Shown here piece after piece: positions 1,074 to 58,607 of a DNA stretch of 64,000 nt. The notes below the pieces were generated by a model, which had not been told where the DNA came from, ran no database searches, and saw nothing but the letters and a program-made list of their open reading frames with translations. This DNA is from an uncultured Desulfobacteraceae bacterium (GTDB lineage Bacteria > Desulfobacterota > Desulfobacteria > Desulfobacterales > JAABSP01). Location of the stretch: the NCBI GenBank assembly GCA_964431545.1, contig CAYSLC010000001.1:44386-108385 (forward strand), written 5' to 3'. A program made the translations under genes and the position numbers. How positions within the stretch are numbered: the first letter of the stretch is position 1; each line of letters starts with the position of its first letter.

Positions 1074-1367
1074 ATGCCGCCCATGAACGATCCGACCCGA
1101 AACAACGAAGGTGAAGTGGCCTATATCAAGATCGCGGTATTGGAGAGCCCCTTCGAGGCCCAGGTGGTGGAGGGAATCCTGCGGGAGGAGGAGATCCCCT
1201 TCCTTGTGCGTTCGTACCACGACACCGCCTACGACGGGATCTTCCAGATGCAGAAAGGGTGGGGGGAAATCCGGGCTCCGGCCCCCCACGGCCCGCGGAT
1301 CAAAGAGATTCTTTCCTTTGTGAGAACGGAGAACCATGATATAGAGGATAAAAACGACGAACCTTGA
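1074..1367 (+). CDS. small DUF2007-like protein (putative signal-transducing fold)
   Basis: This is the 3' part of track ORF 36..1367, with an ATG at 1074. The sequence EGEVAYIKIAVLESPFEAQVVEGILREEEIPFLVRSYHD resembles the DUF2007 pattern. The upstream ~340 codons of the track ORF are antisense to mreB and are not credible. Confidence 0.45.
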   Translation: MPPMNDPTRNNEGEVAYIKIAVLESPFEAQVVEGILREEEIPFLVRSYHDTAYDGIFQMQKGWGEIRAPAPHGPRIKEILSFVRTENHDIEDKNDEP

Positions 1368-1527
1368 TTGTCGCCGTGGGGCGGACGGGGGCCGTCGACC
1401 CTGAGCCGGCGAGGACCGAAACGGGAGGGTGAAAAGCAATGGTCCTGGACGGCCCGCCGTTGTCCAGGGGGAAGGCGCCATCCCGCCGGGGGGAAGGATG
1501 ATCCGACTTTGAAAGGAGGTATCTGGT

Positions 1528-2796
1528 ATGTCCGATTTTGAGAATGCCCTGAAAGTGGGCCGACCGCCCAACATCGTCAAGCTGTTTCCCAGTTCCAGGG
1601 CCCTGATCGTCAGCGGAAAGTACATCGATCTCGCCATGCTCGCCAAGGGCGGGACCATCTGCATGGCCGCCAACGGCAGAAGTCACCTGGTCATCCGCGG
1701 GGCCCTCAGGGCGGCCCAACGCGCCAACGCGGCGTTGATCATCGAGATCGCCAAATCCGAAGGGGGCGGGAACGCTTACTGCGCCGTCAACTACTGGAAC
1801 ATCGCCCGGCAGGTGGACGGACTGTGCAACGAGATGGGGATCACCGTTCCGGTGGCCGTCCACGCCGACCATTACGGCATCAAGAGCCAAAAGGACGTGG
1901 AGTCCGCCCGCAAGGAGATCCCCACCCTTTTCGAGTTCGGGATCACCTCCATGTCCATCGACGCCTCCCACATGCCCGATGACGAGAACCTCCTGGCCAG
2001 CCTCGAATTGAAGCCCCTGGTTCCGGAGTGGGCGGGATACGAGACCGAGGTGGGCGAGATCAAGGGCAAGGAGGGGCTCTCCACGGTGGAAGAAGCCCTC
2101 TTTTTGGTCCAGGGCCTCAACGCCCACGGGATCTTCCCCAACTGGATCGCCCTCAACAACGGCACGACCCACGGCATCGAGGCCAGCGACCAGGGCATCC
2201 AGGTGGAGTTGACCGCCGAGATCCACGAGGCGCTTACCCCCTACCGGGTCTCCGGTGCCCAGCACGGCACCTCCGGCAACAGTTCCGACCGCCTCCGCCG
2301 GATCGCGGCGGAGACCCGAACCACCAAAGCCAACGTGGCCACCGCCCTCCAGATGATCTCCTGGGGGGTGGATGTCAACGATTACGGCAACGCGATTCTG
2401 GACGGGTCGGGCAACTTCAGCAAGGTCAAGGGAGAGGGGGTCACCGAGGAACTCTGGGAGGAGATGGTGGCCTATGCCGAGTCGAAGGGATGGAAGAAGG
2501 GGGACTACAAAAAGCTCAATCTGCCCTTCGAAAACAAGATTCTGGGACAGCCCCGGGAGATCCGGGACCGGATGAGCAGGCGGGTGGAGGCGTTCGCCCA
2601 TACCATGATCGCCGACGTGTTCCACGGCCGGGACACCGCCGGGATCGTCATGGATGCCATCCTCAAGGCGGGTTCCCATGATCCCGGGCCAAAGGCCGAG
2701 CGGATCGAGGATCCCAAGGAATGGACCACCGAGACCATCCGCCAGAAGGCCCCGATCCAGGCGGATAAAGGTCCGGCCGGCGACTTCGACGACTGA
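1528..2796 (+). CDS. class II fructose/ketose-bisphosphate aldolase family protein
   Basis: 422 aa. It carries VAVHADHYG and the SGAQHGTSGNS metal/phosphate-binding motifs typical of class II aldolases. A GGAGG-like RBS (aaaggagg) lies upstream of the ATG. Confidence 0.85.
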   Translation: MSDFENALKVGRPPNIVKLFPSSRALIVSGKYIDLAMLAKGGTICMAANGRSHLVIRGALRAAQRANAALIIEIAKSEGGGNAYCAVNYWNIARQVDGLCNEMGITVPVAVHADHYGIKSQKDVESARKEIPTLFEFGITSMSIDASHMPDDENLLASLELKPLVPEWAGYETEVGEIKGKEGLSTVEEALFLVQGLNAHGIFPNWIALNNGTTHGIEASDQGIQVELTAEIHEALTPYRVSGAQHGTSGNSSDRLRRIAAETRTTKANVATALQMISWGVDVNDYGNAILDGSGNFSKVKGEGVTEELWEEMVAYAESKGWKKGDYKKLNLPFENKILGQPREIRDRMSRRVEAFAHTMIADVFHGRDTAGIVMDAILKAGSHDPGPKAERIEDPKEWTTETIRQKAPIQADKGPAGDFDD

Positions 2797-2999
2797 TCCG
2801 CCGAGCCAGGACCGTCCGCCGTCTGTCGATCCCGGTACCGGGTGAAAGGGGCGGACGGTCGCCGATACAGGCTCCGGGCGCGGGTCCGCGCCCGGGGCGA
2901 CGGCCATCCCCCAAGGCCGCGCCCGTTTCCGTCCTCCGCGTCCGCGGCGGACCGCATCCCCGCCCCAACACCCGGCTCCCCCCTCTGATCGCCCCGAGA

Positions 3000-3028
3000 T
3001 TGACAAGCGGCATCGATATTCGTTAAAG
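3000..3028 (+). promoter_or_regulatory. possible sigma-70 promoter (TTGACA-N17-TTAAAG) ahead of the hybrid kinase
   Basis: A perfect -35 TTGACA at 3000-3005, a 17-nt spacer, and a weak -10 TTAAAG at 3023-3028. This is consistent with the downstream TTG start at 3145 rather than the GTG at 3031. Confidence 0.3.
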
Positions 3029-3144
3029 GAGTGGGCGTCGCGAAACTCGGCATCCGGAAAGCGACCTTCGGCCCGAAGAACCATCTTCCGTCATTCCCAC
3101 CGGCATTCGGCTGCAATCGATGTACCATTAAGGGAGACGCCACT

Positions 3145-6100
3145 TTGTCCGAAAGCGGACCCACATCCTCGGATCCCCGTGGGGACGGGTTTCTTCCCGG
3201 AGAGGCCCATGCCGCCTCGGCGGCCCGGCGGCTGATCGTCAGCCTCGGGCTCACCCTGGGGCTGGTTTCCCTCATCGTTATCCCTTTGGGAGCGGTCCTC
3301 TGGTTCAAGGTGGCGGCGCCCCCTCCCCCGGCCCCGGAGGCCTATATCGATTTCATCGCCGGATGCCTGAAACCCGCCCTTCGGGAGGGGGATATGGCGG
3401 CGGTTCAACGGATGGGTCGGCTGTTGATCGAGGATGAGATCGTTTTTTCCCTGGAGCTTACCGATGCCGAGGGTACGCCTTATCTGTCCATCGAGAAGTC
3501 CACTTTCGGAGAAGATTTCGATTCCTCCATGGGATTCCAGGACGTCCGCATCCTCACCGAAGCTGGAAAGACCCTGGCCCGGCTTCGGGTCACCGTTCTT
3601 CCGCCGGATCGGGCCCTTCTGGGACGGCAGGCGCTCTACCTGGCCCTGGGGTGTACGGTCCTCTCCCTGGCGGCCCTGGTATTTCTGGCCGGACGATGGG
3701 TCCAGGTCACCATCGAACGCCCCCTGAATCGACTGGCGGACGGGCTGGGTAACGCCCTCGCCGATTCGGAGGGACCCCCGGTCCGGGGGGTGGTTCACCG
3801 GGAGTTCCTACCCCTGGCCCGTGAGCTGAAGCGGATGGTGGATCGTGCCGGGGAAAGGCTCGGGACTTTGAGGGCGGCCGAGTGGAAATACCGGTCGGTG
3901 TTCGAGACGGCCGAAAAAGGGATGTTCCAGGGGACCGAGGAGGGGCGGCTGATCCGGATCAACCCCGCTTTCGCGGCCATGCTCGGCTACGACGACCCGG
4001 AGGAAGCCATGGACCGGATCGGCGAGGCGGCGCACCGGATGTACGCCACCTTCCGGGACAGCGACGAGATCCGCCACCGGCTTCGGGAGCAGGGGCGGGT
4101 GACCGGCTACGAGACCGAACTGGTGGACCGGTCGGGCCGTCCCTTCCGGGTCGTTCTCAACATCCGCGCGGCCCTGGACCCCCACGGCAACATCCGGTAC
4201 TACGAAGGGTGTGTCACCGACATTTCCGCTCGGTCGGAGCGGGAAAGCCGGTTCACGGAACAGGCCGAAGCCGAGGCGGAAAACCGGGTTCGGGCCGAAC
4301 TGGTGGGCGAGGTCGGATACGAGATCCGGACCCCCATCAACGCCATTCTGGGGTTGGCGGGCATCCTCCTCAAGACCGGCACCACCGCCGCCCAGCGGGA
4401 TTACCTGAGCAAGATCGACGCATCGGCGCGCATCATGCGCGGGGTGGTGGAAGAATTCGTCCGTTCCTCCGAGGAGGACGAACCGCCCAGGATCGAATCC
4501 CGGCCCTTCGGGCTCCGGCATCTGATGGAGCGGCTTTCCGATATCTTCGCGGAGAAGACCGCCAAGAAGCACCTGGAGATGATCACCACCGTCGATGATG
4601 ACGTCCCCGACGCCCTGGAGGGAGACCCCCCGCGGCTGGAGCAGGTCCTGATCCACCTCGTCGACAACGCCGTCAAATTCACCGCCGGGGGGGAGGTGGT
4701 CATCCGGGTCTCCGTCCGGGATATCCGGGCGGACCGGGCGGTCCTCGGCTTTTCCATCCGGGACACGGGGCTGGGGATTCCATCCGACCAGCTTGCGCGG
4801 CTCTTCACACCCGGGAACGGGGACGGGCGGAGGGCCCGGCTCAGCGGCCTCGGCCCGGGCCTGGTGGCCTGCAAACGGTTGATCGAGCTGATGGACGGGG
4901 AGATCGAGGTGGAGACCCAGCCGGACCAGGGCTCCACCTTCTTTTTTACCGCCCGCTTCGGCGTGAGCGCCGACGCGCCGGCGCCGGACCAAGCCCTGCC
5001 CCCGGGCCTGCGGGGGCTGCGGGTGGCGGTGGTGGACGATAACGCGGCGGTCTGCGGGATGCTGGAGGGGCTTCTGACCCGGTTCAACTTCGATCCCCTC
5101 TGCCTCCGGAGCGGGGAGGCGGCCCTGGGGTTCCTGGACGCCGAGGGGGCGGCTCCGGACCTGCTGCTCGTCGACTGGCGCATGCCGGGGATGGACGGCA
5201 TCGAGTTCACCCGGCGGGTGCGCCGCAGGTTCCAGCGCCGGGACCTGCCCATCGTCCTGATGGCCGAGATGGGGGCCGAGGAGATGGCCGAGCGAGCCGC
5301 CGCGGCGGGGGTGGACGGGGTCCTCCTCAAGCCGGTCAAGCCGTCGATCCTCTTCGACACGGTCATGGAGGTCTTCGGCCCCCGGGTTATGGAGGCCTTC
5401 TCCGAGGGCGGGGGCGAGGGGAACCTCTCCGAGGTGGTGGAGCGGATCCGCGGCATACGGGTCCTTCTGGTCGAGGACCACGCGATCAACCGGCAGGTGG
5501 CCGCCCGGATCCTCTCGGGGGCTGACATCCTGGTGGAGACCGCCGGGGACGGGCGAGAGGCGGTGGAAAAAGTGGCGGCCGCCGGCGCCGGGGAGATCCC
5601 CCCCTTCGACGCGGTGCTCATGGACATCCAGATGCCCCGGATGGGAGGGCTTGCGGCCGCGGGCGCCATCCGGGAGGACCCTCGATTTGCCGACCTGCCC
5701 ATCATCGCCATGACCGCCCATACCCTTCCCAGGGACCGCCGGCGGTCTCTGGAGGCGGGGATGAACGACCACGTCACCAAGCCCATCGACGAAGAGGCGC
5801 TCTTCAGAACCCTGGCCCGCTGGGTGAACGGCGGTGAAGGGGATCCTCCGTCGGAGGCCGCGTCCCGTCGGTCCGGGGAGGAGGCTCTCCGGGAGGTCCT
5901 GGACACGGCCCAGGTCCTGGGACGGCTGGGGGGCAACCGACTCCTCTTCGACAAGCTCCTCCGGGACTTTGTCGCCGATCACGGCGATGCGGATCGACGG
6001 ATCCGCGCGGCCCTGGAAAAGGAGGACGAAGACCAGGCGCTGGGGCTGCTTCGGGGACTCAAGGGGGCGGCCGGAAACCTGGCGGCGCGGGAGGTGCACC

Positions 6101-6495
6101 AGGCCGCCCTATCCCTGGAGATGGAGCTGCACCACGGACCCGGAGACCTGGAAGCGTTGCTGGAGGACCTCTGCGAAAGCCACCGCCGCCTGGTGGCGGT
6201 CATCGAGGAGAGGGAGCCCGCGCCGGCGGCCCCTCCATCCCCGGAGGAGGAACGGAAACGCCCCCTGCCCCGGACCCTTCCCCCCATGGTCCGGGAACTC
6301 CACCGGAGCCTGATCGAGGGGGAACTCCCCCCGGAGACGATGCTGGCCGAAATCAAGCGGCTCATGAAGGGCCTCGGCCATCAGGACCGCCTCAACCGCC
6401 TGGGGGATCAGATCCGTCGGTCCCGGATGAAGGAGGCCCGGAACATCCTCGCCACCATCGCCTGGTCCCTGGGCATCTCCCTGGACGGAGAGTGA
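3145..6495 (+). CDS. hybrid sensor histidine-kinase-like protein (TM, PAS, HisKA-like, HATPase, 2x receiver, HPt-like)
   Basis: Track ORF 3031..6495. The GTG at 3031 abuts its GGAG with no spacer. The TTG at 3145 has AAGGGAG 8 nt upstream, so I prefer it. Domains read from the sequence: TM helix LIVSLGLTLGLVSLIVIPLGAVLWF; a PAS region; H-box-like GYEIRTPINAILG; N-box LIHLVDNAVKFT; G-boxes DTGLGIP and GLGPGL. The receivers have LLLVDWRMPGMDG and AVLMDIQMPRMGG. The C-terminal HPt-like segment reads LLRGLKGAAGNLAA. Confidence 0.85.
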   Translation: MSESGPTSSDPRGDGFLPGEAHAASAARRLIVSLGLTLGLVSLIVIPLGAVLWFKVAAPPPPAPEAYIDFIAGCLKPALREGDMAAVQRMGRLLIEDEIVFSLELTDAEGTPYLSIEKSTFGEDFDSSMGFQDVRILTEAGKTLARLRVTVLPPDRALLGRQALYLALGCTVLSLAALVFLAGRWVQVTIERPLNRLADGLGNALADSEGPPVRGVVHREFLPLARELKRMVDRAGERLGTLRAAEWKYRSVFETAEKGMFQGTEEGRLIRINPAFAAMLGYDDPEEAMDRIGEAAHRMYATFRDSDEIRHRLREQGRVTGYETELVDRSGRPFRVVLNIRAALDPHGNIRYYEGCVTDISARSERESRFTEQAEAEAENRVRAELVGEVGYEIRTPINAILGLAGILLKTGTTAAQRDYLSKIDASARIMRGVVEEFVRSSEEDEPPRIESRPFGLRHLMERLSDIFAEKTAKKHLEMITTVDDDVPDALEGDPPRLEQVLIHLVDNAVKFTAGGEVVIRVSVRDIRADRAVLGFSIRDTGLGIPSDQLARLFTPGNGDGRRARLSGLGPGLVACKRLIELMDGEIEVETQPDQGSTFFFTARFGVSADAPAPDQALPPGLRGLRVAVVDDNAAVCGMLEGLLTRFNFDPLCLRSGEAALGFLDAEGAAPDLLLVDWRMPGMDGIEFTRRVRRRFQRRDLPIVLMAEMGAEEMAERAAAAGVDGVLLKPVKPSILFDTVMEVFGPRVMEAFSEGGGEGNLSEVVERIRGIRVLLVEDHAINRQVAARILSGADILVETAGDGREAVEKVAAAGAGEIPPFDAVLMDIQMPRMGGLAAAGAIREDPRFADLPIIAMTAHTLPRDRRRSLEAGMNDHVTKPIDEEALFRTLARWVNGGEGDPPSEAASRRSGEEALREVLDTAQVLGRLGGNRLLFDKLLRDFVADHGDADRRIRAALEKEDEDQALGLLRGLKGAAGNLAAREVHQAALSLEMELHHGPGDLEALLEDLCESHRRLVAVIEEREPAPAAPPSPEEERKRPLPRTLPPMVRELHRSLIEGELPPETMLAEIKRLMKGLGHQDRLNRLGDQIRRSRMKEARNILATIAWSLGISLDGE

Positions 6496-21410: not shown

Positions 21411-22874
21411 ATGGCAAACAACGAAAATTCGAGTTTCAACTGGAACAGATTGGTCTTCATGCTCACCGGCGTGGTCCTCTTTACCGTTGTCTATTTCTCT
21501 CCGCCCTGGCCGGACGCCGTGGATCCGCTCGGAGAACGTTTCGTCCTGTCCCGGGAGGGCAAAGGCGCCCTGGCGGTCTTCCTGCTGGCCGGCACCTGGT
21601 GGGTCTTCGAAGTGGTCCCCATCGGTGTGACCAGCCTGGCCATCGGCGTTCTCCAGGCCCTCTTCATGATCCGGCCCGCCAAGGTGGCCTTCAAGGATTT
21701 CATGGATCCATCGGTGATGTTCATCTTCGCCTCCATCGTCATCGGGCTGGTCTTCACCAAGACGGGATTGACCAAGCGGCTCGCCTACAAGATGTTGGAG
21801 ATCGTGGGGGAGAAGACCAGCATGATCTACCTGGGTTGCTTTCTGGTCACCTCGGCCCTGACCCACATCATGGCCCACACGGCGGTGGCGGCCACCATCT
21901 ATCCGCTTCTGCTCGCCATCTACAGCCTCTACGGGGAGGGGGACAAGCCGACGAAGTTCGGCAAGGGCCTTTTCATGGGGATGGCCTACGTGGCCGGCGC
22001 CGGGAGTATCGTGACCCTCCTCGGGGCGGCCCGGGGGGCCGTGGCCATCGGCTTTTACAAGGACATCGTGGGGGAGGAGATCACCTTCTTCGGTCTGACC
22101 TACTACATGTTTCCCATCGGGTGGATCATGACCTTCCTGCTGTGGGGGTTCTTCATGGTCTTCTTCAAACCCGAAAAGGAACGGATTCCGGGACTGCGGG
22201 AGCGGGCCAAGCTCCTCAACGCCGAGCTGGGGTCGATCACCCAAAAGGAGATCATCGCCGGTGTCATCGTGCTCCTCTGTATCATCACCATGTCCCTGCG
22301 CTCTTTCGTTCCGGCCTTGGCGGCCATCGACAAGACCGCCATCATCCTCATCTCCACCATCCTCTTTTTCATCTTCAAGATCCTCGACCTGGACGACCTG
22401 GAAGATATCCCCTGGAACATCATTCTGCTTTTCGCCGGGGCCATGAGCATCGGCTTCTGCCTCTGGGAGACCGGGGCCGCCAAGTGGCTCGCCGTCAACT
22501 GGCTGGTGATGTTCCAGGAGGCCAACTGGTTCATCTTCGTCATGGCCATCGCCTTCTTCGTGATGCTCATGACCAACTTCATCATGAACGTGGCGGCCAT
22601 CGCCATCTCCCTGCCCGTGGCCCTGGTGATCGCGCCCTATCTCAAGGTCGCGCCGGAGGTGATCCTCTTCGCCTCTCTGGTGGTGGCGGGCATGCCCTTC
22701 CTCCTGCTGGTGGGCGCGGCCCCCAACGCCATCGCCTACGACTCCAAGCAGTTCACCACCGGCGAGTTCTTCCTCTACGGGCTGCCGGCAAGCCTTCTGC
22801 TGATGGTGATCGTGGGCCTGGCCGCGCTGGTGATCTGGCCCATGATGGGGATGCCCGTCACGGTGCCCGGATAA
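21411..22874 (+). CDS. DASS/SLC13-type (ArsB/NhaD superfamily) anion:Na+ symporter
   Basis: 487 aa and polytopic. The repeated hairpin-helix architecture and the sequence style (..VVPIGVTSLAIGVL.., ..GAAPNAIAY..) are typical of divalent-anion:sodium symporters. Confidence 0.75.
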   Translation: MANNENSSFNWNRLVFMLTGVVLFTVVYFSPPWPDAVDPLGERFVLSREGKGALAVFLLAGTWWVFEVVPIGVTSLAIGVLQALFMIRPAKVAFKDFMDPSVMFIFASIVIGLVFTKTGLTKRLAYKMLEIVGEKTSMIYLGCFLVTSALTHIMAHTAVAATIYPLLLAIYSLYGEGDKPTKFGKGLFMGMAYVAGAGSIVTLLGAARGAVAIGFYKDIVGEEITFFGLTYYMFPIGWIMTFLLWGFFMVFFKPEKERIPGLRERAKLLNAELGSITQKEIIAGVIVLLCIITMSLRSFVPALAAIDKTAIILISTILFFIFKILDLDDLEDIPWNIILLFAGAMSIGFCLWETGAAKWLAVNWLVMFQEANWFIFVMAIAFFVMLMTNFIMNVAAIAISLPVALVIAPYLKVAPEVILFASLVVAGMPFLLLVGAAPNAIAYDSKQFTTGEFFLYGLPASLLLMVIVGLAALVIWPMMGMPVTVPG

Positions 22875-22920
22875 GCCGGGAAACATCGGGATCGACGATG
22901 GGGTGTTGGTCCTGAGAATC

Positions 22921-22962
22921 AAAAAAGGGCCGCCCGGTCCATCGACCGGCGCGGCCCTTTTC
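22921..22962. terminator. bidirectional intrinsic terminator between convergent genes
   Basis: The sequence aaaaaa-GGGCCGCCCGGTC-catc-GACCGGCGCGGCCC-tttt has an A-run on one side and a T-run on the other, and lies between the + transporter and the - response regulator. Confidence 0.7.
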
Positions 22963-23019
22963 CGTTTCCATTCCACCCGCCCGATCCCCGGGCCTCCCGG
23001 CCCAAGGAGGAGCGGCCCG

Positions 23020-26281: not shown

Positions 26282-26365
26282 TCCACAACTCTGACGAGGG
26301 GTTGATATGACTCAACGGGAAATGTCCCGCCGAGCGGTCCGGCGATCCGGAAGGATGGTTCGGGA

Positions 26366-26830
26366 TCAGTCCTCGTCTTTGTCCATGATGTCCTTGGCGG
26401 TGTCGAACTCGCCGGCCTCGGCAAAGGTGGCCGCCATGATCGATTTGTCGATCTTTTTCTTGTAGGCGGTGCGGATGGTGCTGACGATGGTCTCGATATC
26501 GGCCGGTTTCTGAAGATACTCGAAGGCGCCCAGCTTTCGGGCTTCCTTTTCATCTTTCTCCGAACCATGGCCGGTGAGCATGATCACCTGAACCTGGGGA
26601 TAGGCCTTCTTGACCCGCCGTAAAACCTCCATGCCGTCGATTCCGGGCATCTTGAGGTCGAGAATCATGACATCCGGAACTTCGTCCTTCACGACCTTGA
26701 GGGCCTGTTCCCCGTCATAAGCGATGTCCGAACCGAGGTTCCGCATCTCGATCCGCTCGGACAGGGTCTTGACGAACTCCTCTTCGTCGTCCACCAAAAG
26801 GACCTTGATGTTTTCCTTATCTTTTCCCAT
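26366..26830 (-). CDS. response regulator (receiver) with C-terminal MAATFAEAGE-motif tail
   Basis: The start is taken at MGKDKENIKVLLVDDE (ATG 26830). DVMILDLKMPGIDG, IMLTGH and YLQKP are present. The tail reads KSIMAATFAEAGEFDTAKDIMDKDED. Confidence 0.85.
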   Translation of the reverse strand: MGKDKENIKVLLVDDEEEFVKTLSERIEMRNLGSDIAYDGEQALKVVKDEVPDVMILDLKMPGIDGMEVLRRVKKAYPQVQVIMLTGHGSEKDEKEARKLGAFEYLQKPADIETIVSTIRTAYKKKIDKSIMAATFAEAGEFDTAKDIMDKDED

Positions 26831-27386
26831 CGTTCTCTCCCTTCTGATCTCCCGTGAGTCGGGTGGTTTTTCCCTCGGCTCCGGCATCGCCGGACGGCGC
26901 CGCGGGGGACTTTTCGATGAACGCCAGGGCCGTTTCCGGCTCCCCAGCCTCCGCGAAGGCGGCGGCCATCATGGCGTCCTGGTAGCGCTTGAAAAACGAC
27001 CTCTTTGTCCGCTCCCCGGACGTCTTGCGCTGGTAGGCCTCCTTGATGCGCTCCACCAGCTTCTTGACATCGAAGGGGACGAAGAAATCGTCGAAGGCCC
27101 CCAGTTTCATGCCCTCGATGGAGAGGGAGAGCTGGGCGGCCCCGTTGAGCAGGATGACCTCGGTCAGCGGGTTGAGCTTCTTGATCTGCCGTAGCAGGGT
27201 CAGCCCCTCCTCCCTCAACCCGCCGAGGCTCAACAGCACCACGTCGATCTTATGATGTCGGATCGTTTTCTTCAACCCTGCCGCGCCGTCGGACTCGAAT
27301 ACCCGAAACGGATCGGTCTCCAGGCGCTGTTGCAGACTTCGCCTGAAGAACCGGTCCGAATCGATGATCAGAAGGTTGATCCCCAT
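26817..27386 (-). CDS. pseudo-receiver protein with C-terminal MMAAAFAEAGE-motif tail
   Basis: The fold is receiver-like (MGINLLIIDSD..). However, the acceptor position reads VVLLSLGG (Asp to Ser), the Thr position reads ILLNG and the Lys position reads FFVPF. The tail reads DAMMAAAFAEAGEPETALAFI. Confidence 0.8.
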   Translation of the reverse strand: MGINLLIIDSDRFFRRSLQQRLETDPFRVFESDGAAGLKKTIRHHKIDVVLLSLGGLREEGLTLLRQIKKLNPLTEVILLNGAAQLSLSIEGMKLGAFDDFFVPFDVKKLVERIKEAYQRKTSGERTKRSFFKRYQDAMMAAAFAEAGEPETALAFIEKSPAAPSGDAGAEGKTTRLTGDQKGENDGKR

Positions 27387-27415: not shown

Positions 27416-27598
27416 CTACAGGTTCGCGACGACGTAGCTGTAGCGGACGCCGCCCAACCCGACGGTATCGAGGAACTCCTCCAGCGTCGGCTTGGCCTTG
27501 GGGGCCTCCATGAACTCCCGGGCTGTGTCATGGCAGTCCGCCTCGGCGAAGGTTGCGGCCATAAAGGTCTTTTCCAGCTTCTCAAAAAACTTTTTCAT
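27416..27598 (-). CDS. 60-aa protein consisting largely of the MAATFAEA motif
   Basis: An AAGGAGA RBS lies 6 nt upstream of the ATG, and the gene is directly downstream of a consensus sigma-54 promoter. Sequence: MKKFFEKLEKTFMAATFAEADCHDTAREFMEAPKAKPTLEEFLDTVGLGGVRYSYVVANL. Confidence 0.65.
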   Translation of the reverse strand: MKKFFEKLEKTFMAATFAEADCHDTAREFMEAPKAKPTLEEFLDTVGLGGVRYSYVVANL

Positions 27599-27660
27599 GG
27601 TGTTCTCCTTTTTTCATCCATGTGGGTTATCGATGCCACCTTTTCGATGACAGATAACGA

Positions 27661-27676
27661 AGCAAGAAGGGTGCCA
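27661..27676 (-). promoter_or_regulatory. sigma-54 (RpoN) -24/-12 promoter
   Basis: The minus strand reads TGGCAC-CCTTC-TTGCT, an exact match to TGGCAC-N5-TTGCW. It lies about 60 nt upstream of the 27598 start codon, in a 197-nt low-GC gap. Confidence 0.75.
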
Positions 27677-27795
27677 AACCAGTAACAGCCACCGTTTCGG
27701 GCGCTGGTGGAACTATGGTCCTCCCCGGAAACGGAGTTGAAGCACCATGAAACAAATCAAAACAATTACATCGGCACAAACCGAAACATAATGAA

Positions 27796-28173
27796 CTATG
27801 TATCAGGCTTCCCCGACGCCTCCTCGATCTTCGAAAGGAGCTGATTAATATCGATGGGCTTCATCATGTAGTCGAAGGCCCCCTGTCGCATCCCCTCGAT
27901 CCCCTCTTTGGTGGACCCCCGTCCGGTGAGCAGGATCACCGGCATGTCCGGATGTTCGGACTTGATCCGTTTGAGCGTCTCCAGGCCGCCGATGCCCGGC
28001 ATCATCAGGTCGAGGACCACCAGGTCCGGCGGGTCGTCGGAGACCATGGGCAGCGCGGTCTCCCCGTCTCCGGCCGTCCGCACGGCCATTCCCCTGAGTT
28101 CCAGCCGTTCGGCCAGGGTGGTGACAAACTCCTTTTCATCGTCCACAAGAAGCAGTTTCATTTGGGCCATCAA
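27796..28173 (-). CDS. single-domain response regulator
   Basis: LLLVDDE, LVVLDLMMPGIGG, ILLTGR and YMMKP are present. The start overlaps the upstream kinase stop by 4 nt. Confidence 0.9.
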   Translation of the reverse strand: MMAQMKLLLVDDEKEFVTTLAERLELRGMAVRTAGDGETALPMVSDDPPDLVVLDLMMPGIGGLETLKRIKSEHPDMPVILLTGRGSTKEGIEGMRQGAFDYMMKPIDINQLLSKIEEASGKPDT

Positions 28174-29912
28174 CCGATCTCCTCCGGGGACTCGTTCCCC
28201 GCTGTGGCCTTCTTCGGCAGATAAACGGTAAAGGTGGCGCCCTCTCTCTCCTTGCTGTGGACCTTGATGTCGCCACCCAGTTTCTTAACGATTCCGTAGG
28301 TGATAAAGAGCCCCAGCCCGGTGCCCCCCGATTTTTTCGTGGTGAAAAAGGGGTCGAAGATCCGCTGGATCGTCTCCTCGGACATGCCGGAGCCGTTGTC
28401 CTGGATGGAGATCCCCAGGGTCTCGGGATCCTCCTCCCAGGTGGTGACGGAGATCCGCCCGCCCTCGGATACCGCCCCCAGCGCGTTGGTCATGATGTTG
28501 AGAAAGACCTGCTGAAGCTGGCCCAGATCCGATGAGATCCGGGGGAGGTCTTCGGCCAGCTGGAGGCGAAGGTCGATGTTCCGGTAGATCATCTCCTTTT
28601 CCAGGAATCCCGCCACATCCCGGATCAGGAGGTTGAGGTCGAGTTCCTCGAAGTGGACCTCCTTTCTGCGGGCGAAGCCCAGAAGCCGATGGGTGATGGT
28701 CTTGCACCGGCCCACCGAGTCGAGCACCCCTTCCAGAAGCTGTTCGAACTTCTCCTTTTTGTCGAAATCCTTGGAGAAAGCGACCAGATCCTGGAGCAGT
28801 CCGGCCTTTTCGTTGATGATGGCCAGGGGGTTGTTGATCTCATGGGCCACACCGGCGGCCAGCCGGCCGATGGAGGAGAGCTTCTGGTTCTGCTCCAGCT
28901 CGTGGATGGCGTTCTCCCGTCGTTCGTCCGCCTCGCGGATGTTGGTCACCAGCACGTCGGAGAGCTTGATGACGATGACCATGATGACCACCACGCTGAC
29001 GAAAAAGATGAAGAACATCTCCCCCTGGAGCGTCATCCAGGTCCTAAGGACCAACGCCCTGGGCTTGACCACCACCAGTTGAAAGCCGGGCTTTTCGAGG
29101 CCCACGTACGCGATGGTCACCTCCCTCCCCTGGGGATCGAGGGTGTCGAGCACATGGGGGCCGAAGCTCTGGGAGGGGAGATCGAAGGGGCATTTTTCCA
29201 GGAGTTCGCCGTAGAAACGGGACCGGGTCTGCAGGATCCCCTCCTGGTTGATGATGAAGGCGTCCGCCTCGGGGTCGAGCCCCATGGCCGAGATGAGGTC
29301 GTAGAACCGGTTGGTGTCGATGGTGGCCCGGAGGACCCAGGTGCGGCCCTCCTCCTCCACCCGCTGGACGGCGATGGCGATGTGGGGAAACTTCCGATAC
29401 CCCATGAAGACGTCGCTGATGTAGGTGTCCCGGATGACCACCTCCTGGAACCATTCCTGGCCCGAATAGTCCTTGCCCAGCAGGGAGTAAGGCCCGGCGT
29501 AGCTGATCTGCGTGCCGGCGCTGTTGATCAGTCCGATGTCCACGAACCCCTCGAACTCCATCTTGAGGACCCGGAAGATCCGGGCAAGGGTCCGCTCGCC
29601 GGCGAGCTGGTCAAAGGAATAGGCCGAGGCGACGAACCGGACCGTGGAGAGCCGTTCCTCCAGGAAGAGTTCGAACGAATGGCGGGTCTTGCTCAGCAGG
29701 ACCCGGAGAGGGTCGATGACTTCGTTTTTGATGCTCTCCCGGTACTGGAAATGGTTGATTCCCGCCATGATCCCCAACGGCAGGATGGTGACGACCAGCA
29801 TGGTCACGGTGATGTTCCGCCGGAGTTCCAGATACCGCCGGGGGGAGTCGCTCACCTTATGGATGCTCAGAAACCCTCTGAGGATGGCGCTCGGCCAGTG
29901 CCTAACATTCAT
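28170..29912 (-). CDS. Cache-type periplasmic sensor histidine kinase (paralogue of 24548..26281)
   Basis: The ATG at 29912 has GGAGGA 6 nt upstream, so it is preferred over the track start at 29966. H-box AAGVAHEINNPLAII, N-box LNIMTNALGA, G-boxes DNGSGMS and GGTGLGLFI. Confidence 0.9.
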   Translation of the reverse strand: MNVRHWPSAILRGFLSIHKVSDSPRRYLELRRNITVTMLVVTILPLGIMAGINHFQYRESIKNEVIDPLRVLLSKTRHSFELFLEERLSTVRFVASAYSFDQLAGERTLARIFRVLKMEFEGFVDIGLINSAGTQISYAGPYSLLGKDYSGQEWFQEVVIRDTYISDVFMGYRKFPHIAIAVQRVEEEGRTWVLRATIDTNRFYDLISAMGLDPEADAFIINQEGILQTRSRFYGELLEKCPFDLPSQSFGPHVLDTLDPQGREVTIAYVGLEKPGFQLVVVKPRALVLRTWMTLQGEMFFIFFVSVVVIMVIVIKLSDVLVTNIREADERRENAIHELEQNQKLSSIGRLAAGVAHEINNPLAIINEKAGLLQDLVAFSKDFDKKEKFEQLLEGVLDSVGRCKTITHRLLGFARRKEVHFEELDLNLLIRDVAGFLEKEMIYRNIDLRLQLAEDLPRISSDLGQLQQVFLNIMTNALGAVSEGGRISVTTWEEDPETLGISIQDNGSGMSEETIQRIFDPFFTTKKSGGTGLGLFITYGIVKKLGGDIKVHSKEREGATFTVYLPKKATAGNESPEEIG

Positions 29913-30258
29913 GGGATTTCCTCCTGGGGCACAGAATGCTCCCCGGTTCCAGGCGCCCCGCCACATAGGCGGACAGGGCCGCCTTCCACGCCCCGATCAC
30001 GCCGTCCAACAAAGAGACCCGTTTCCACTGGAGGTACTGGTGGTACTCCTCCTCGATGCCGCCGCAGATCACGGTGCCGATCTCCTCTTTGAGGACCATG
30101 TGGCACAGCTGTTCCGCCGAGGCCTGGGAGACCACGATGATCCGGTCCTCCCGAACGTCCCCTTGGCTGTCCAGGACGGCGATGAGGACCTCCGTCGCCA
30201 GGTCGAACCGGGGGGCCACATCGTCGCCGAAAAGGGGGATCAACACCTTGTCGCTCAT
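29902..30258 (-). CDS. NifX/NifB-C-terminal-type (dinitrogenase FeMo-cofactor-binding fold) domain protein
   Basis: An ATG at 30258 overlaps the EBP stop (ATGA). MSDKVLIPLFGDDVAPRFDLATEVLIAVLD...AEQLCHMVLKEEIGTVICGGIEEEYHQYLQWKRVSLLDGVIG has the pattern of that small alpha/beta family. Confidence 0.65.
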   Translation of the reverse strand: MSDKVLIPLFGDDVAPRFDLATEVLIAVLDSQGDVREDRIIVVSQASAEQLCHMVLKEEIGTVICGGIEEEYHQYLQWKRVSLLDGVIGAWKAALSAYVAGRLEPGSILCPRRKSHEC

Positions 30259-31685
30259 GGGGAGTCGATCCCGTGCCGCTTCATCTTCCGCCAGAGGGTC
30301 GATCTGCCCCATCCCAAAATCTCCGCGGCCCGGCTCCGTTTGCCTCCGGCACGAACCAGGGCGTCGAGGATCATCCGCCGTTCCACCTCGGCCCAGGTCT
30401 CCGTCCCGCCGCTCCCCTCCGCGCCGGTAAGTCGGGGCCGTTCCCCGGCCGGGGGGCGGTCCCCTCCGGCCTCGCCGGCGGGGACCGGCCGGGGTTCGGT
30501 GAGGTAGGCCGGCAGGTGGGCCGGCAGGATCCGGGATTCCCGGCAGATGTTGACGGCGTACTCGACGATGTTCCGCAGCTCCCGGACGTTGCCGGGGTAG
30601 TCGTACTGATTCAGGAGGGTCAGAGCCTCCCGGGAATACCCTTCCACGGCCTTGTTGAACTTCCCCGCGAAGCGGTTGAGGAAATGGTCGAGGAGGAGGC
30701 GGATATCGAGTTCCCGGTCCCGCAGTGGCGGAAGCTTGACCCGCACCACGTTGAGGCGGAAGAGGAGATCCTCCCGGAATCGCTTCTCATGGACCATCGT
30801 CTCCAGATCCCGGTGGGTGCCGGCGATCACTCGGACGTCGGCCTGGAACCCCCGGGTACTGCCCAACGGATAGACCACCTGGTCGTCCAGGAAGGTGAGC
30901 AGCTTCACCTGGAGGGTCGGGGGGAGATCCCCGATCTCCGTGAGAAAGAGGGTGCCGTTGTGGGCCAGTTGGAACCGCCCCGGCTTGTTCTCCACCGCGC
31001 CGGTGAACGCCCCTTTCCGGTGGCCGAAGAGTTCCGACTCCAGAAGGGTTTCCGGGAGGGCCCCGCAGTTGACCTTGATGAAAGGGCCCTTGGCCCGGCC
31101 CGAGGCCCCGTGGATCGCCTCGGCCACCAGATCCTTGCCGGTCCCGGTCTCGCCGGTGATCAGGACCGAGGAGTCGCTCTGGGCCACAGCGGGAAGAACC
31201 GAAAAGACCTTCTCCATGCTGGGGCTCTTGCCGATGATGGTCCCGAAACTGTAGGCCTGGCTCGACCGGGCGTCCATCTCCCCGTACGGCCGGAGGTCCT
31301 CCACCGTTTCGATGAATCCCAAGGGATCCTCCCCGTCGCCGGCGATGGGGGCGACGGTGACGCGGACCGGGATCCGCTGCCGCTCCCGGTTGATGATGTC
31401 CGTGTCGACGCTGACGGGGTTGGTGTCCGCGGTCATCCCCCGGGCCGGACACGCGGTGACGCAGGCCCGGCTTCGGAGGACATGGTGGCAGGGGATCCGG
31501 TAGGTCGCGGCGGTCTCCTGGGAGAAGCCGGTCACGGCGCACAGGGACCGGTTCAATAGGGTGACATGGAGTCCGTCGTCGAGGATCGCAATGCCCATGG
31601 GGATCTCGTCGAGGAGCGCCTGGAGGGTGACCGGGGCGTGAAAAAGCCCCTCCACGCGGGGGATGCACCGGTCCTCAGGGGCCAC
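30255..31685 (-). CDS. sigma-54-dependent transcriptional activator (PAS - AAA+ - Fis HTH)
   Basis: Walker A GETGTGKD, the sigma-54 contact loop GAFTGA and a C-terminal HTH (AAEILGWGRSTLWRKMKRHGI). The N-terminal PAS-like domain carries C..CHHVLRSRACVTAC. GTG start. Confidence 0.9.
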   Translation of the reverse strand: MAPEDRCIPRVEGLFHAPVTLQALLDEIPMGIAILDDGLHVTLLNRSLCAVTGFSQETAATYRIPCHHVLRSRACVTACPARGMTADTNPVSVDTDIINRERQRIPVRVTVAPIAGDGEDPLGFIETVEDLRPYGEMDARSSQAYSFGTIIGKSPSMEKVFSVLPAVAQSDSSVLITGETGTGKDLVAEAIHGASGRAKGPFIKVNCGALPETLLESELFGHRKGAFTGAVENKPGRFQLAHNGTLFLTEIGDLPPTLQVKLLTFLDDQVVYPLGSTRGFQADVRVIAGTHRDLETMVHEKRFREDLLFRLNVVRVKLPPLRDRELDIRLLLDHFLNRFAGKFNKAVEGYSREALTLLNQYDYPGNVRELRNIVEYAVNICRESRILPAHLPAYLTEPRPVPAGEAGGDRPPAGERPRLTGAEGSGGTETWAEVERRMILDALVRAGGKRSRAAEILGWGRSTLWRKMKRHGIDSP

Positions 31686-32236
31686 TACTCCTCTTCTTCC
31701 AATAAGGCGTGGACCGCCAGCAGCAGATCGGCGTCCCGGAGGACCCCCACCAGTTGCTTCCCCTCCAGGACGGGAAGCTTTGTGATCTTGTTTTTGAAGA
31801 TCATCCGGAGGGCGTCCATGAGCCCGGCGTCCGCCTGGATCGTGCCCCGGATCTTGAGCATGATATCCTTGACCTTGACCTCGGCGTTCTTCCGGACCCG
31901 GGCCCGGAACCCCAGATTGGCGTCGTCCAGATCCGAGGCCCCCGCCTCCGCGAACGCGGCCGAAACCCCGGCGGCGGCCAGCCGCTGGCTGAGCCCCCCC
32001 GCCACCTCCGGGATCAGGGTCCTCAGAATGGTGGCGAAGTCCAGAATCCCGGCCAGGTTGTCCTTATCGTCCATGGCCAGGACCGTCCGATGGCCGGCCT
32101 CGGTGCACGATTCGGCGTCCAGCTCGCAGTAGGAGCCCCGGAGAACGGCGACGGCCTCCCGCAGGGGGGCCTCCTTGGAAACGGTGGAGTAGTCTTTGAT
32201 CGGGATCATGATCTCCCGGACTGTTTTTTTCAACAT
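31685..32236 (-). CDS. CBS-domain-pair protein with inter-domain AAFAEAG insert
   Basis: The ATG at 32236 has AGGAGG 9 nt upstream. The N-terminus MLKKTVREIMIPIKDYSTVSKEAPLREAVAVL parallels the 20800 CBS protein. The linker contains GVSAAFAEAGASDLDD. Confidence 0.75.
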   Translation of the reverse strand: MLKKTVREIMIPIKDYSTVSKEAPLREAVAVLRGSYCELDAESCTEAGHRTVLAMDDKDNLAGILDFATILRTLIPEVAGGLSQRLAAAGVSAAFAEAGASDLDDANLGFRARVRKNAEVKVKDIMLKIRGTIQADAGLMDALRMIFKNKITKLPVLEGKQLVGVLRDADLLLAVHALLEEEE

Positions 32237-32323
32237 ATTTCGGTACCTCCTGGATGGCATTCGGGTTCTTGGAGCCCCGGTGGTCGGCGGTCCCGGCCCC
32301 TCGGGGGTTGGCGTCTCGGTGGA

Positions 32324-58273: not shown

Positions 58274-58607
58274 CCTTCTCCTTACATGATTATGTGGGGG
58301 CTGAAACAAAATCGGATCATTGCGGCCGAGTCGGAAACCCTACGGGGGCAAGGAGATCTTGTCAAGGCCCGATCGGACGGAGTCGCCGCACCCGTCCGGG
58401 TCCTACGGACTGCACGGTCGGTTTACCGTGAGAACGAAAGGGATATGGAGTCTTTCCTCGCCTCAAGTTAGGGGATGACCCCATATACATCCCGCGGTCT
58501 CCGCGGGTATGATGAATCTACATTTGGAAAGGGAAAGGGTTGAACCGTAACTTCGAACCCGAAGGTTGGAGGCTCCAACCGAAACAGAAAAATAGGAGGA
58601 CCGAAAA

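Follow-up and report, generated by a model that had tools for sequence, protein, structure and literature searches.

A predicted sigma-54-dependent promoter with a direct-repeat enhancer inside a conserved signalling gene array of an uncultured Desulfobacteraceae bacterium

Results

A probable sigma-54 promoter element between two signalling modules

We analysed a 64,000-nucleotide (nt) stretch of DNA (hereafter, the window) from contig CAYSLC010000001.1 of an uncultured Desulfobacteraceae bacterium, focusing on a 197-nt gap (positions 27599-27795) within an array of signalling genes on the minus strand. The gap likely carries a functional sigma-54-dependent promoter with its own enhancer, which would be activated by an enhancer-binding protein (EBP) and plausibly gated by redox potential. 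The coordinates of the DNA elements and of the surrounding genes are listed in Table 1.

The minus strand at 27676-27661 reads TGGCACCCTTCTTGCT, which has the form TGGCAC-N5-TTGCT; its GG and GC lie at the exact 10-nt spacing required within TGGCAC-N5-TTGCW. A preliminary description of this DNA had named this sequence a consensus sigma-54 promoter and the only exact match in the window, and both statements held. The exact motif TGGCAC-N5-TTGCT occurred once on the two strands of the window, compared with 0.01 occurrences expected from dinucleotide shuffles, and TGGCACCCTTCTTGCT ranked first among 1119 GG-N10-GC candidates scored against the sigma-54 consensus. The element had also been placed in a low-GC gap directly upstream of a gene for a 60-amino-acid (aa) motif protein. 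The gap indeed lies between the receiver gene of 125 aa, whose stop codon is TAG (27798-27796), and the ATG at 27598, and its GC content is about 46-51%, compared with 64% for the window.

Contigs carrying orthologous loci were fetched through homologues of the 60-aa open reading frame (ORF), and the intergenic gaps of eight distinct loci were aligned (alignment A2). The pairwise identity of these gaps averaged only 52% (range 44-62%), and the following blocks were invariant: GTTTC (27787-27783) and TGTTTC (27754-27749) in the upstream part, TTGGC (27677-27673) and TTGC (27665-27662) in the promoter, i.e., TTGGC-N7-TTGC in all eight loci, and AGGAG (27609-27605) together with the ATG at the start region. 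A ninth locus on a partial contig (L025) also contains TTTGGCATCTGTTTTGCAT. The strict motif TGGCA[CT]-N5-TTGC was found once per 12-kb orthologous locus, each time between the same two genes. Judged from these alignments, the conservation of the -24/-12 element amid diverged flanks is a textbook phylogenetic footprint of a sigma-54 promoter. The preliminary description further held that the promoter splits a signalling array, and this array is itself conserved in the orthologues.

By standard sigma-54 geometry, in which the C of the GC is position -12, transcription is predicted to start near 27650. This would leave a 5'-untranslated region (5'-UTR) of about 52 nt ahead of the ATG; thus, the orientation and distance fit a promoter of the 60-aa gene. 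No sigma-70-like promoter was found on the coding strand of the gap, and no Rfam family matched the gap at E<=1, i.e., no known structured RNA was found there. A conserved hairpin in the 5'-UTR was considered and rejected; small GC hairpins could be seen by eye in several orthologues, but their z scores against shuffles ranged from -0.9 to +2.1.

The conserved blocks could instead be sites of some other factor, with a fortuitous resemblance to the -24/-12 element. The lack of any rpoN gene in the 64-kb window would agree with such a coincidence. However, the invariant positions are precisely the GG and the GC, set the obligatory 10 nt apart, and the consensus bases next to them, and positions that our search of more distant loci did not demand fit the consensus as well. 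The layout of enhancer, site resembling that of integration host factor (IHF) and promoter also speaks against chance, as does the EBP bearing an intact GAFTGA loop that is encoded in the same array; to our knowledge, such a protein has no function without sigma-54. We therefore find a fortuitous resemblance hardly credible.

The second-best sigma-54-like site of the window is putative: TGGTACATCGATTGCA, on the minus strand at 3112-3127. It lies 28 nt 5' of the ATG of a minus-strand ORF (1300-3084) with no Pfam match, and also inside the N-terminal part of a plus-strand hybrid kinase ORF (3031-6495).

Phased direct repeats upstream of the promoter

Upstream of the promoter, the gap contains an array of TGTTTCA-like repeats (27788-27738) that the preliminary description did not see. 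The core GTTTC of box 1 was invariant in the eight distinct orthologues and was found in about 14 more distant loci. TGTTTC of box 2 was likewise invariant, and box 1 and box 2 together spanned 40 nt in all loci. The distance between box 2 and TTGGC was 70-77 nt, and mostly 71-73 nt, in 24 sequences. An enhancer is expected to consist of conserved sites about 80-150 bp 5' of the promoter at a constrained distance, and the boxes have this arrangement.

We then asked how the repeat units are distributed. Twenty-two loci were aligned on box 1, and near-matches to TGTTTCA were counted with the anchors at 0 and +34 excluded. In the forward orientation there were 26 near-matches, compared with 6.2 expected (P<0.0005), with peaks at +10, +24 and +44; in the reverse orientation there were only seven, which showed no positional pile-up. 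Because the forward near-matches recur at the same offsets, the enhancer can be described as a helically phased array of repeats in direct orientation. In two strains that are 99% identical to the window (L087 and L088), a C>T substitution at 27742 makes the +44 unit a perfect TGTTTCA. The dyad symmetry expected of each site for a Fis-type helix-turn-helix (HTH) dimer was absent, the units being direct repeats. A literature search for a TGTTTCA enhancer returned nothing relevant.

A second GTTTC...TGTTTCA pair on the minus strand of the window (58302-58338) was judged to be a chance occurrence; its spacing is off by 3 nt and no -24/-12 element follows it. This pair is intergenic, 5' of a DUF362/4Fe-4S gene, with a sigma-70-like TTGACA close by.

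More distant loci were sought by scanning metagenomes with the pattern GTTTC-N28-TGTTTC-N68-77-TTGGC-N7-TTGC. The scan returned 58 matches. About 18 of these adjoin genes homologous, at 33-68% identity, to those of the EBP, the histidine kinase (HK) or the response regulators (RR). The other matches, about 40, had no related gene nearby and were treated as chance, one gut-bacterium gene being matched nine times. The positions that the pattern did not demand also fit the sigma-54 consensus, with A after TTGGC and W after TTGC. The first gene after the promoter varies among the distant loci. It encodes a small motif protein in three (L031, L070 and L077), a receiver in two (L035 and L084), a SulP-type transporter in L032, and a protein of about 400 aa, followed by a receiver and a transporter, in six (L036, L041, L045, L059, L062 and L078). 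When genome contigs were searched with the 598-aa kinase, no relative exceeded about 42% identity, and neither a strict -24/-12 element nor the box pair was present in any of them.

Two distant loci, L039:7436-7563 and L032:883-1008, have palindromic boxes (GTTTCATGAAAC; GTTTCA-N10-TGAAAC), and their EBPs are 33-38% identical to that of the window. The L039 promoter precedes a CoA-transferase gene, and the L032 promoter precedes the gene of the SulP transporter. These loci may belong to a related family of regulators whose site is a dyad built from the same half-site.

A candidate activator encoded in the same array

The preliminary description had pointed to the only EBP of the window, encoded 2.6 kb upstream in the same array, and a phmmer search of the AAA+ core against all six-frame ORFs confirmed that there is just one. 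In Pfam, this protein has PAS_8/PAS_9, Sigma54_activat, AAA_lid_14 and HTH_8 domains, and it has no receiver domain. Its gene is syntenic in the window and in all five full-length orthologues. In four other loci (L035, L064, L072 and L084), the EBP gene stands directly 5' of the array and promoter, and the HK-RR module is absent. Because the EBP adjoins the array where the kinase-receiver pair is missing, it is the EBP rather than the intervening genes that appears to be tied to the promoter. Wherever the direct-repeat array occurs, the HTH helix (AA.ILGWGRSTLWRKMKQ.GI) hardly varies, down to an EBP identity of about 55%; it differs in L032 and L039, the two loci with palindromic boxes. From synteny and adjacency, this EBP is most likely the obvious activator of the promoter.

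The promoter may nonetheless be genuine while its activator is a different EBP encoded elsewhere; the EBP of the locus would then serve another target, with some other factor recognising the TGTTTCA array. In L045, a distant locus of 14 kb, the array and promoter are present, yet the 11.7 kb upstream of them contain no EBP homologue. Direct repeats are also atypical of HTH_8 dimers. Because the recognition helix 'RSTLWRK' is common to many EBPs, conservation of the HTH helix discriminates weakly, and deltaproteobacterial genomes often carry dozens of EBPs (PMC4641369). Set against this are the synteny of the locus EBP, its adjacency to the array in the four loci without HK-RR genes, and the absence, by Pfam, of any other DNA-binding domain among the array proteins. 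In addition, EBP genes of Desulfovibrio as a rule lie close to the promoters that they control, and such co-localisation, when conserved, is an accepted basis for assignment (PMC4641369); here it is conserved. Overall, a different activator is quite unlikely. The exceptional locus has the full enhancer and promoter layout at L045:11753-11881, 5' of a gene of about 400 aa, and is the one exception to co-localisation of EBP and promoter.

The PAS domain of the EBP contains the cysteine triad C66-x8-C75-x3-C79, all three residues of which are unchanged in ten orthologous EBPs whose PAS identity falls as low as 38%. OrpR of Desulfovibrio vulgaris senses redox potential with a [4Fe-4S] cluster held by a C-x8-C-x3-C triad in its PAS domain, and the spacing of the two triads is identical (C52/C61/C65 in OrpR; PMC8359166). 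Reasoning from this triad, the input of the EBP is plausibly redox potential. Because the OrpR operator GGGCGYRTTTTGCGCCC is absent from the window (one match with three mismatches, inside a gene, compared with 1.04 expected), the targets differ, and the EBP scores below every NCBIfam equivalog cut-off, we treated the protein as an OrpR-like paralogue with its own operator.

The 118-aa gene next to the EBP gene gave sub-threshold, full-length matches to Nitro_FeMo-Co in three orthologues (E = 0.02, 3.7e-4 and 0.035), and a weak match to the C-terminal domain of MrpORP. Its product may be an orange-protein-like cofactor-binding protein.

An IHF-like position and an inverted repeat in the spacer

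When the spacers were right-aligned on TTGGC, an AACC...TTGAw element appeared at a fixed distance. The IHF consensus YAANNNNTTGATW was matched with at most two mismatches, centred 24-25 nt 5' of TTGGC, in 14 of the 22 loci, compared with 3.3 expected (P<0.001). An IHF site would be expected to match WATCAANNNNTTR between enhancer and promoter, and at this position the best match of the window has four mismatches. An IHF role is thus better supported in the AT-richer relatives and uncertain in this genome.

The same region contains the inverted repeat CCGTTTC-N29-GAAACGG, which the preliminary description had located correctly and had proposed to be a regulator or IHF-type site, or the terminator or attenuator of the upstream module. 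Chance alone accounts for such a repeat; when the gap was shuffled 2000 times with its dinucleotide composition kept, 35% of the shuffles held at least one 7-bp inverted repeat with a loop of 3-40 nt. The minimum-free-energy fold of the window spacer leaves the arms unused (z = +0.21), and the hairpin folded alone (-15.3 kcal/mol) is no more stable than expected (z = -0.23). The five orthologous spacers gave z scores of +1.33, -0.24, +1.31, -0.72 and -2.10 and shared no structure. No U-tract (T-run) follows 27692, and the terminator scan made no call at the repeat. It also sits in the least conserved part of alignment A2, and its sequence is kept only in near-identical strains.

A functional role as a terminator or attenuator hairpin, or as a dyad operator, could draw on L087 and L088, in which both arms are kept and six of the seven substitutions fall between them. 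However, the retention of the arms is nearly uninformative because these strains are 99% identical overall. Both arms also include the GTTTC/GAAAC core of the enhancer repeats, and the 3' arm overlaps the IHF-like position. We considered the 5' arm (CGTTTCC, offset +55) as a sixth enhancer unit; the core is present, but the offset is not recurrent in the 22 loci, in which reverse-oriented repeats do not pile up either. With the chance test, the folding, the terminator scan and the lack of conservation all contrary, a function of the inverted repeat is very improbable; we judge it to be no functional unit and probably a coincidence. Of the proposed IHF-type site, the place was right, as the 3' arm overlaps the IHF-like core of the relatives, but the inverted repeat itself is not that site.

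The six substitutions between the arms lie in one 16-nt stretch (27709-27724), of seven in 210 nt compared with L087 and L088. The cluster would reflect local hypervariability or else a short tract of recombination.

The gene array and the predicted transcript

Gene names in the array were assigned from Pfam, except for the first gene (TauE-like), whose window ORF has no Pfam match and was named from orthologue annotation. Five long orthologous loci have identical gene order over the whole array, beginning with the TauE gene and ending with the last receiver. Downstream of the promoter, the intergenic distances were -14 to 84 nt. No minus-strand terminator was found outside the coding sequence of the unit, the sole terminator-like match being inside the kinase coding sequence. 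The predicted terminator after the last receiver gene has a folding free energy of -38.1 kcal/mol (z = -6.87), and none of 200 shuffles folded as well. Because the gaps are short or overlapping, no internal terminator interrupts the unit and a strong terminator follows its last gene, the transcript most likely comprises seven genes, is about 4.7 kb long and ends at about 22921.

Table 1. Positions of the DNA elements and array genes, in the order of the minus strand.
Feature	Position	Strand	Remarks
TauE-like membrane protein gene		minus	first in gene order
144-aa ORF		minus	
CBS protein gene	31685-32260	minus	
EBP gene (candidate activator)	30255-31685	minus	PAS-AAA+-HTH_8; Pfam Sigma54_activat 5e-67, HTH_8; GAFTGA
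118-aa ORF	29902-30258	minus	overlaps end of EBP gene
dCache histidine kinase gene	28170-29966	minus	
Receiver gene, 125 aa	27796-28173	minus	followed by the gap
Enhancer box 1, TGTTTCG	27782-27788	minus	about -138 to -132; starts 8 nt past the receiver stop codon
Weaker repeat unit, +10	27778-27772	minus	positional pile-up in 22 loci
Weaker repeat unit, +24	27764-27758	minus	positional pile-up in 22 loci
Enhancer box 2, TGTTTCA	27748-27754	minus	about -104 to -98; exactly 34 nt from box 1
Auxiliary unit, TGCTTCA	27738-27744	minus	offset +44; about -94 to -88
Inverted repeat, CCGTTTC-N29-GAAACGG	27692-27734	minus	arms 27734-27728 and 27698-27692; judged non-functional
IHF-like core position	27695-27707	minus	about -57 to -45; overlaps 3' arm of the inverted repeat
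Sigma-54 -24/-12 element, TTGGCAC-N5-TTGCT	27661-27677	minus	GG 27675-27674; GC 27663-27662
Predicted transcription start	27649-27651	minus	+1 about 27650
Shine-Dalgarno sequence AGGAG of the 60-aa ORF	27605-27609	minus	invariant block of alignment A2
60-aa ORF	27416-27598	minus	first gene of the unit; FAEADCH module, GLGGVRYSYVVA tail; AAGGAG 5' of it
Receiver gene, 189 aa	26817-27386	minus	Pfam
Receiver gene, about 154 aa	26366-26830	minus	Pfam
dCache histidine kinase gene, 577 aa	24548-26281	minus	Pfam
Receiver gene, 117 aa	24190-24543	minus	Pfam
HisKA-like gene, 216 aa	23527-24177	minus	Pfam
Receiver gene, 142 aa	23020-23448	minus	Pfam
Predicted intrinsic terminator	22920-22964	minus	GGGCCGCGCCGGTC...GGACCGGGCGGCCC then U6
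Module copies	27416-27598; 26940-26966; 26408-26434; 31937-31963	minus	60-aa ORF; receiver C-terminus; receiver C-terminus; middle of CBS protein

The terminator hairpin is flanked by A4 and T6 and lies between the last receiver gene and a convergent plus-strand DASS gene (21411-22874); it is probably bidirectional. The DASS gene belongs to the Na/sulfate-symporter family, and in distant loci a DASS-like transporter gene lies 3' of the same promoter on the same strand. Within the unit, the 84-nt gap 5' of the 577-aa kinase gene (26282-26365, minus) contains a stable hairpin resembling GCUCGGCGGGAC...GUCCCGUUGAGU, with no U-tract (-29.2 kcal/mol and z = -2.0 for the region), which could be a processing or stability element in the operon.

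The first gene of the unit encodes a protein whose 12 homologues share 57-100% identity and 24 invariant columns, and this pattern indicates strong purifying selection on the protein. The family comprises about 271 representative clusters, and neither Pfam nor NCBIfam has a model for it. Its members consist of one to three FAEAGE/FAEADCH modules and a GL.GVR tail; most are about 100 aa long, with two modules and GL.GVR..Y. The module, A-A-x-F-A-E-A-G/D-E/C...T-A, occurs four times in the window, all on the minus strand within the array. The two receivers that carry it at the C-terminus are those of 189 aa and about 154 aa. A motif common to the small protein and the receiver tails suggests mimicry or competition. 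A literature search for the FAEAGE motif returned nothing relevant.

Discussion

Taken together, the element is most likely an ordinary sigma-54 switch, closest to OrpR and the orp promoters, from which it differs in the direct-repeat enhancer and the target module. In the mechanism that we propose, the layout has the three classical parts, namely enhancer, spacer and -24/-12 element. The enhancer, at about -138 to -88, is built from TGTTTCA repeats in direct orientation and in phase; its two invariant boxes are separated by 34 bp, and weaker units lie 10 bp from each of them. The spacer is fixed in length and free in sequence, and in the relatives it carries an IHF-type bend site centred near -51. 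The PAS-AAA+-HTH activator would assemble on the repeat array, contact the closed sigma-54 holoenzyme through DNA looping and open the complex with ATP hydrolysis. Transcription would then proceed from near 27650 through the 60-aa motif gene and six two-component genes to about 22921. If the redox input is real, as is plausible, the cell would produce the second signalling module only when conditions are reducing.

Several findings weigh against this proposal. As stated above, the enhancer consists of direct repeats instead of the dyad sites that are usual for Fis-type HTH dimers, and L045 has the array and promoter with no EBP homologue nearby. The 13-mer of the window at the IHF-like position (27707-27695) is CCAGCGCCCGAAA, with four mismatches to YAANNNNTTGATW, which makes IHF dependence uncertain in this GC-rich genome. 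Because the metagenome pattern demanded the boxes, only the non-demanded positions and the gene context of the distant loci count as independent evidence. Since the OrpR operator is absent here, the case for a redox input consists of the Cys triad by itself. No ORF with an RpoN box was found within the 64-kb window. Finally, no terminator was found between the upstream receiver gene and the promoter; therefore, read-through from the upstream module may also contribute to expression of the unit.

NtrC at glnAp2 and DctD at dctA are response regulators controlled by phosphorylation, and their binding sites have dyad symmetry. The promoter described here resembles theirs in having a pair of strong activator sites separated by about three turns of the helix (34 bp here), approximately 100-140 bp upstream, and we propose that the sites likewise nucleate an activator oligomer, which would reach the holoenzyme by looping. 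In contrast to NtrC and DctD, the EBP of the locus has a PAS sensor and no receiver, and its putative sites are repeated in direct orientation, with auxiliary units phased at 10 bp. IHF-assisted sigma-54 promoters include Pu, activated by XylR, and pspA, activated by PspF. As in these, the relatives have an IHF-like site at a constant distance between enhancer and promoter, and the spacer is constrained in length and not in sequence; however, the IHF-like core of the window is degenerate, with four mismatches.

The closest comparison is OrpR (DVU2106) of D. vulgaris Hildenborough, which is likewise a one-component PAS-AAA+-HTH protein with C-x8-C-x3-C in the PAS domain, and whose gene is also co-localised with its target promoter. 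OrpR acts with IHF, and the orp promoters are ordered as EBP site, IHF site and sigma-54 element (PMC8359166, PMC3897727). At orp1 and orp2, the EBP site is at -88/-131 and the IHF site at -43/-79, followed by -24/-12 (PMC3897727), and the layout proposed here has the same order. In both cases, a small gene adjoins the regulator gene, here the Nitro_FeMo-Co-like (orange-protein-like) 118-aa gene with its sub-threshold matches. However, the OrpR operator GGGCGYRTTTTGCGCCC is a 17-bp GC-rich imperfect palindrome, whereas the enhancer here is composed of AT-rich direct repeats. The targets of OrpR are the orp operons, whereas the target here would be two-component genes and the 60-aa motif protein; the sole ORP-like gene of the window (29902-30258) sits upstream of the promoter and not in the downstream unit. 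In addition, OrpR has an acidic residue two positions past its first triad Cys, and the EBPs of these loci do not conserve it.

We also considered a bolder interpretation, in which the up to five or six direct repeats allow head-to-tail loading of an OrpR-like Fe-S/PAS activator, forming a redox-licensed hierarchical cascade. We regard this as speculative and rather unlikely. If it were true, redox potential would gate a whole second-tier two-component module together with the small FAEAGE-module protein. The motif of this protein also ends two receivers of the module, and the protein might act as a competitor or mimic of their tails.

These findings leave the understanding of the sigma-54 promoter mechanism unchanged. 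They turn a bare motif match into a defined, predicted unit with an enhancer, a bend site, a promoter, a seven-gene transcript and a terminator, and they name a candidate activator with a testable input, namely redox potential sensed through an OrpR-type Fe-S PAS domain. For an uncharacterised clade of sigma-54 activators on Desulfobacterota-like metagenome contigs, the candidate operator motif, TGTTTCA in 10/34-bp phase, could be used for regulon prediction. In the organism itself, one signalling module would transcriptionally control a second, paralogous module.

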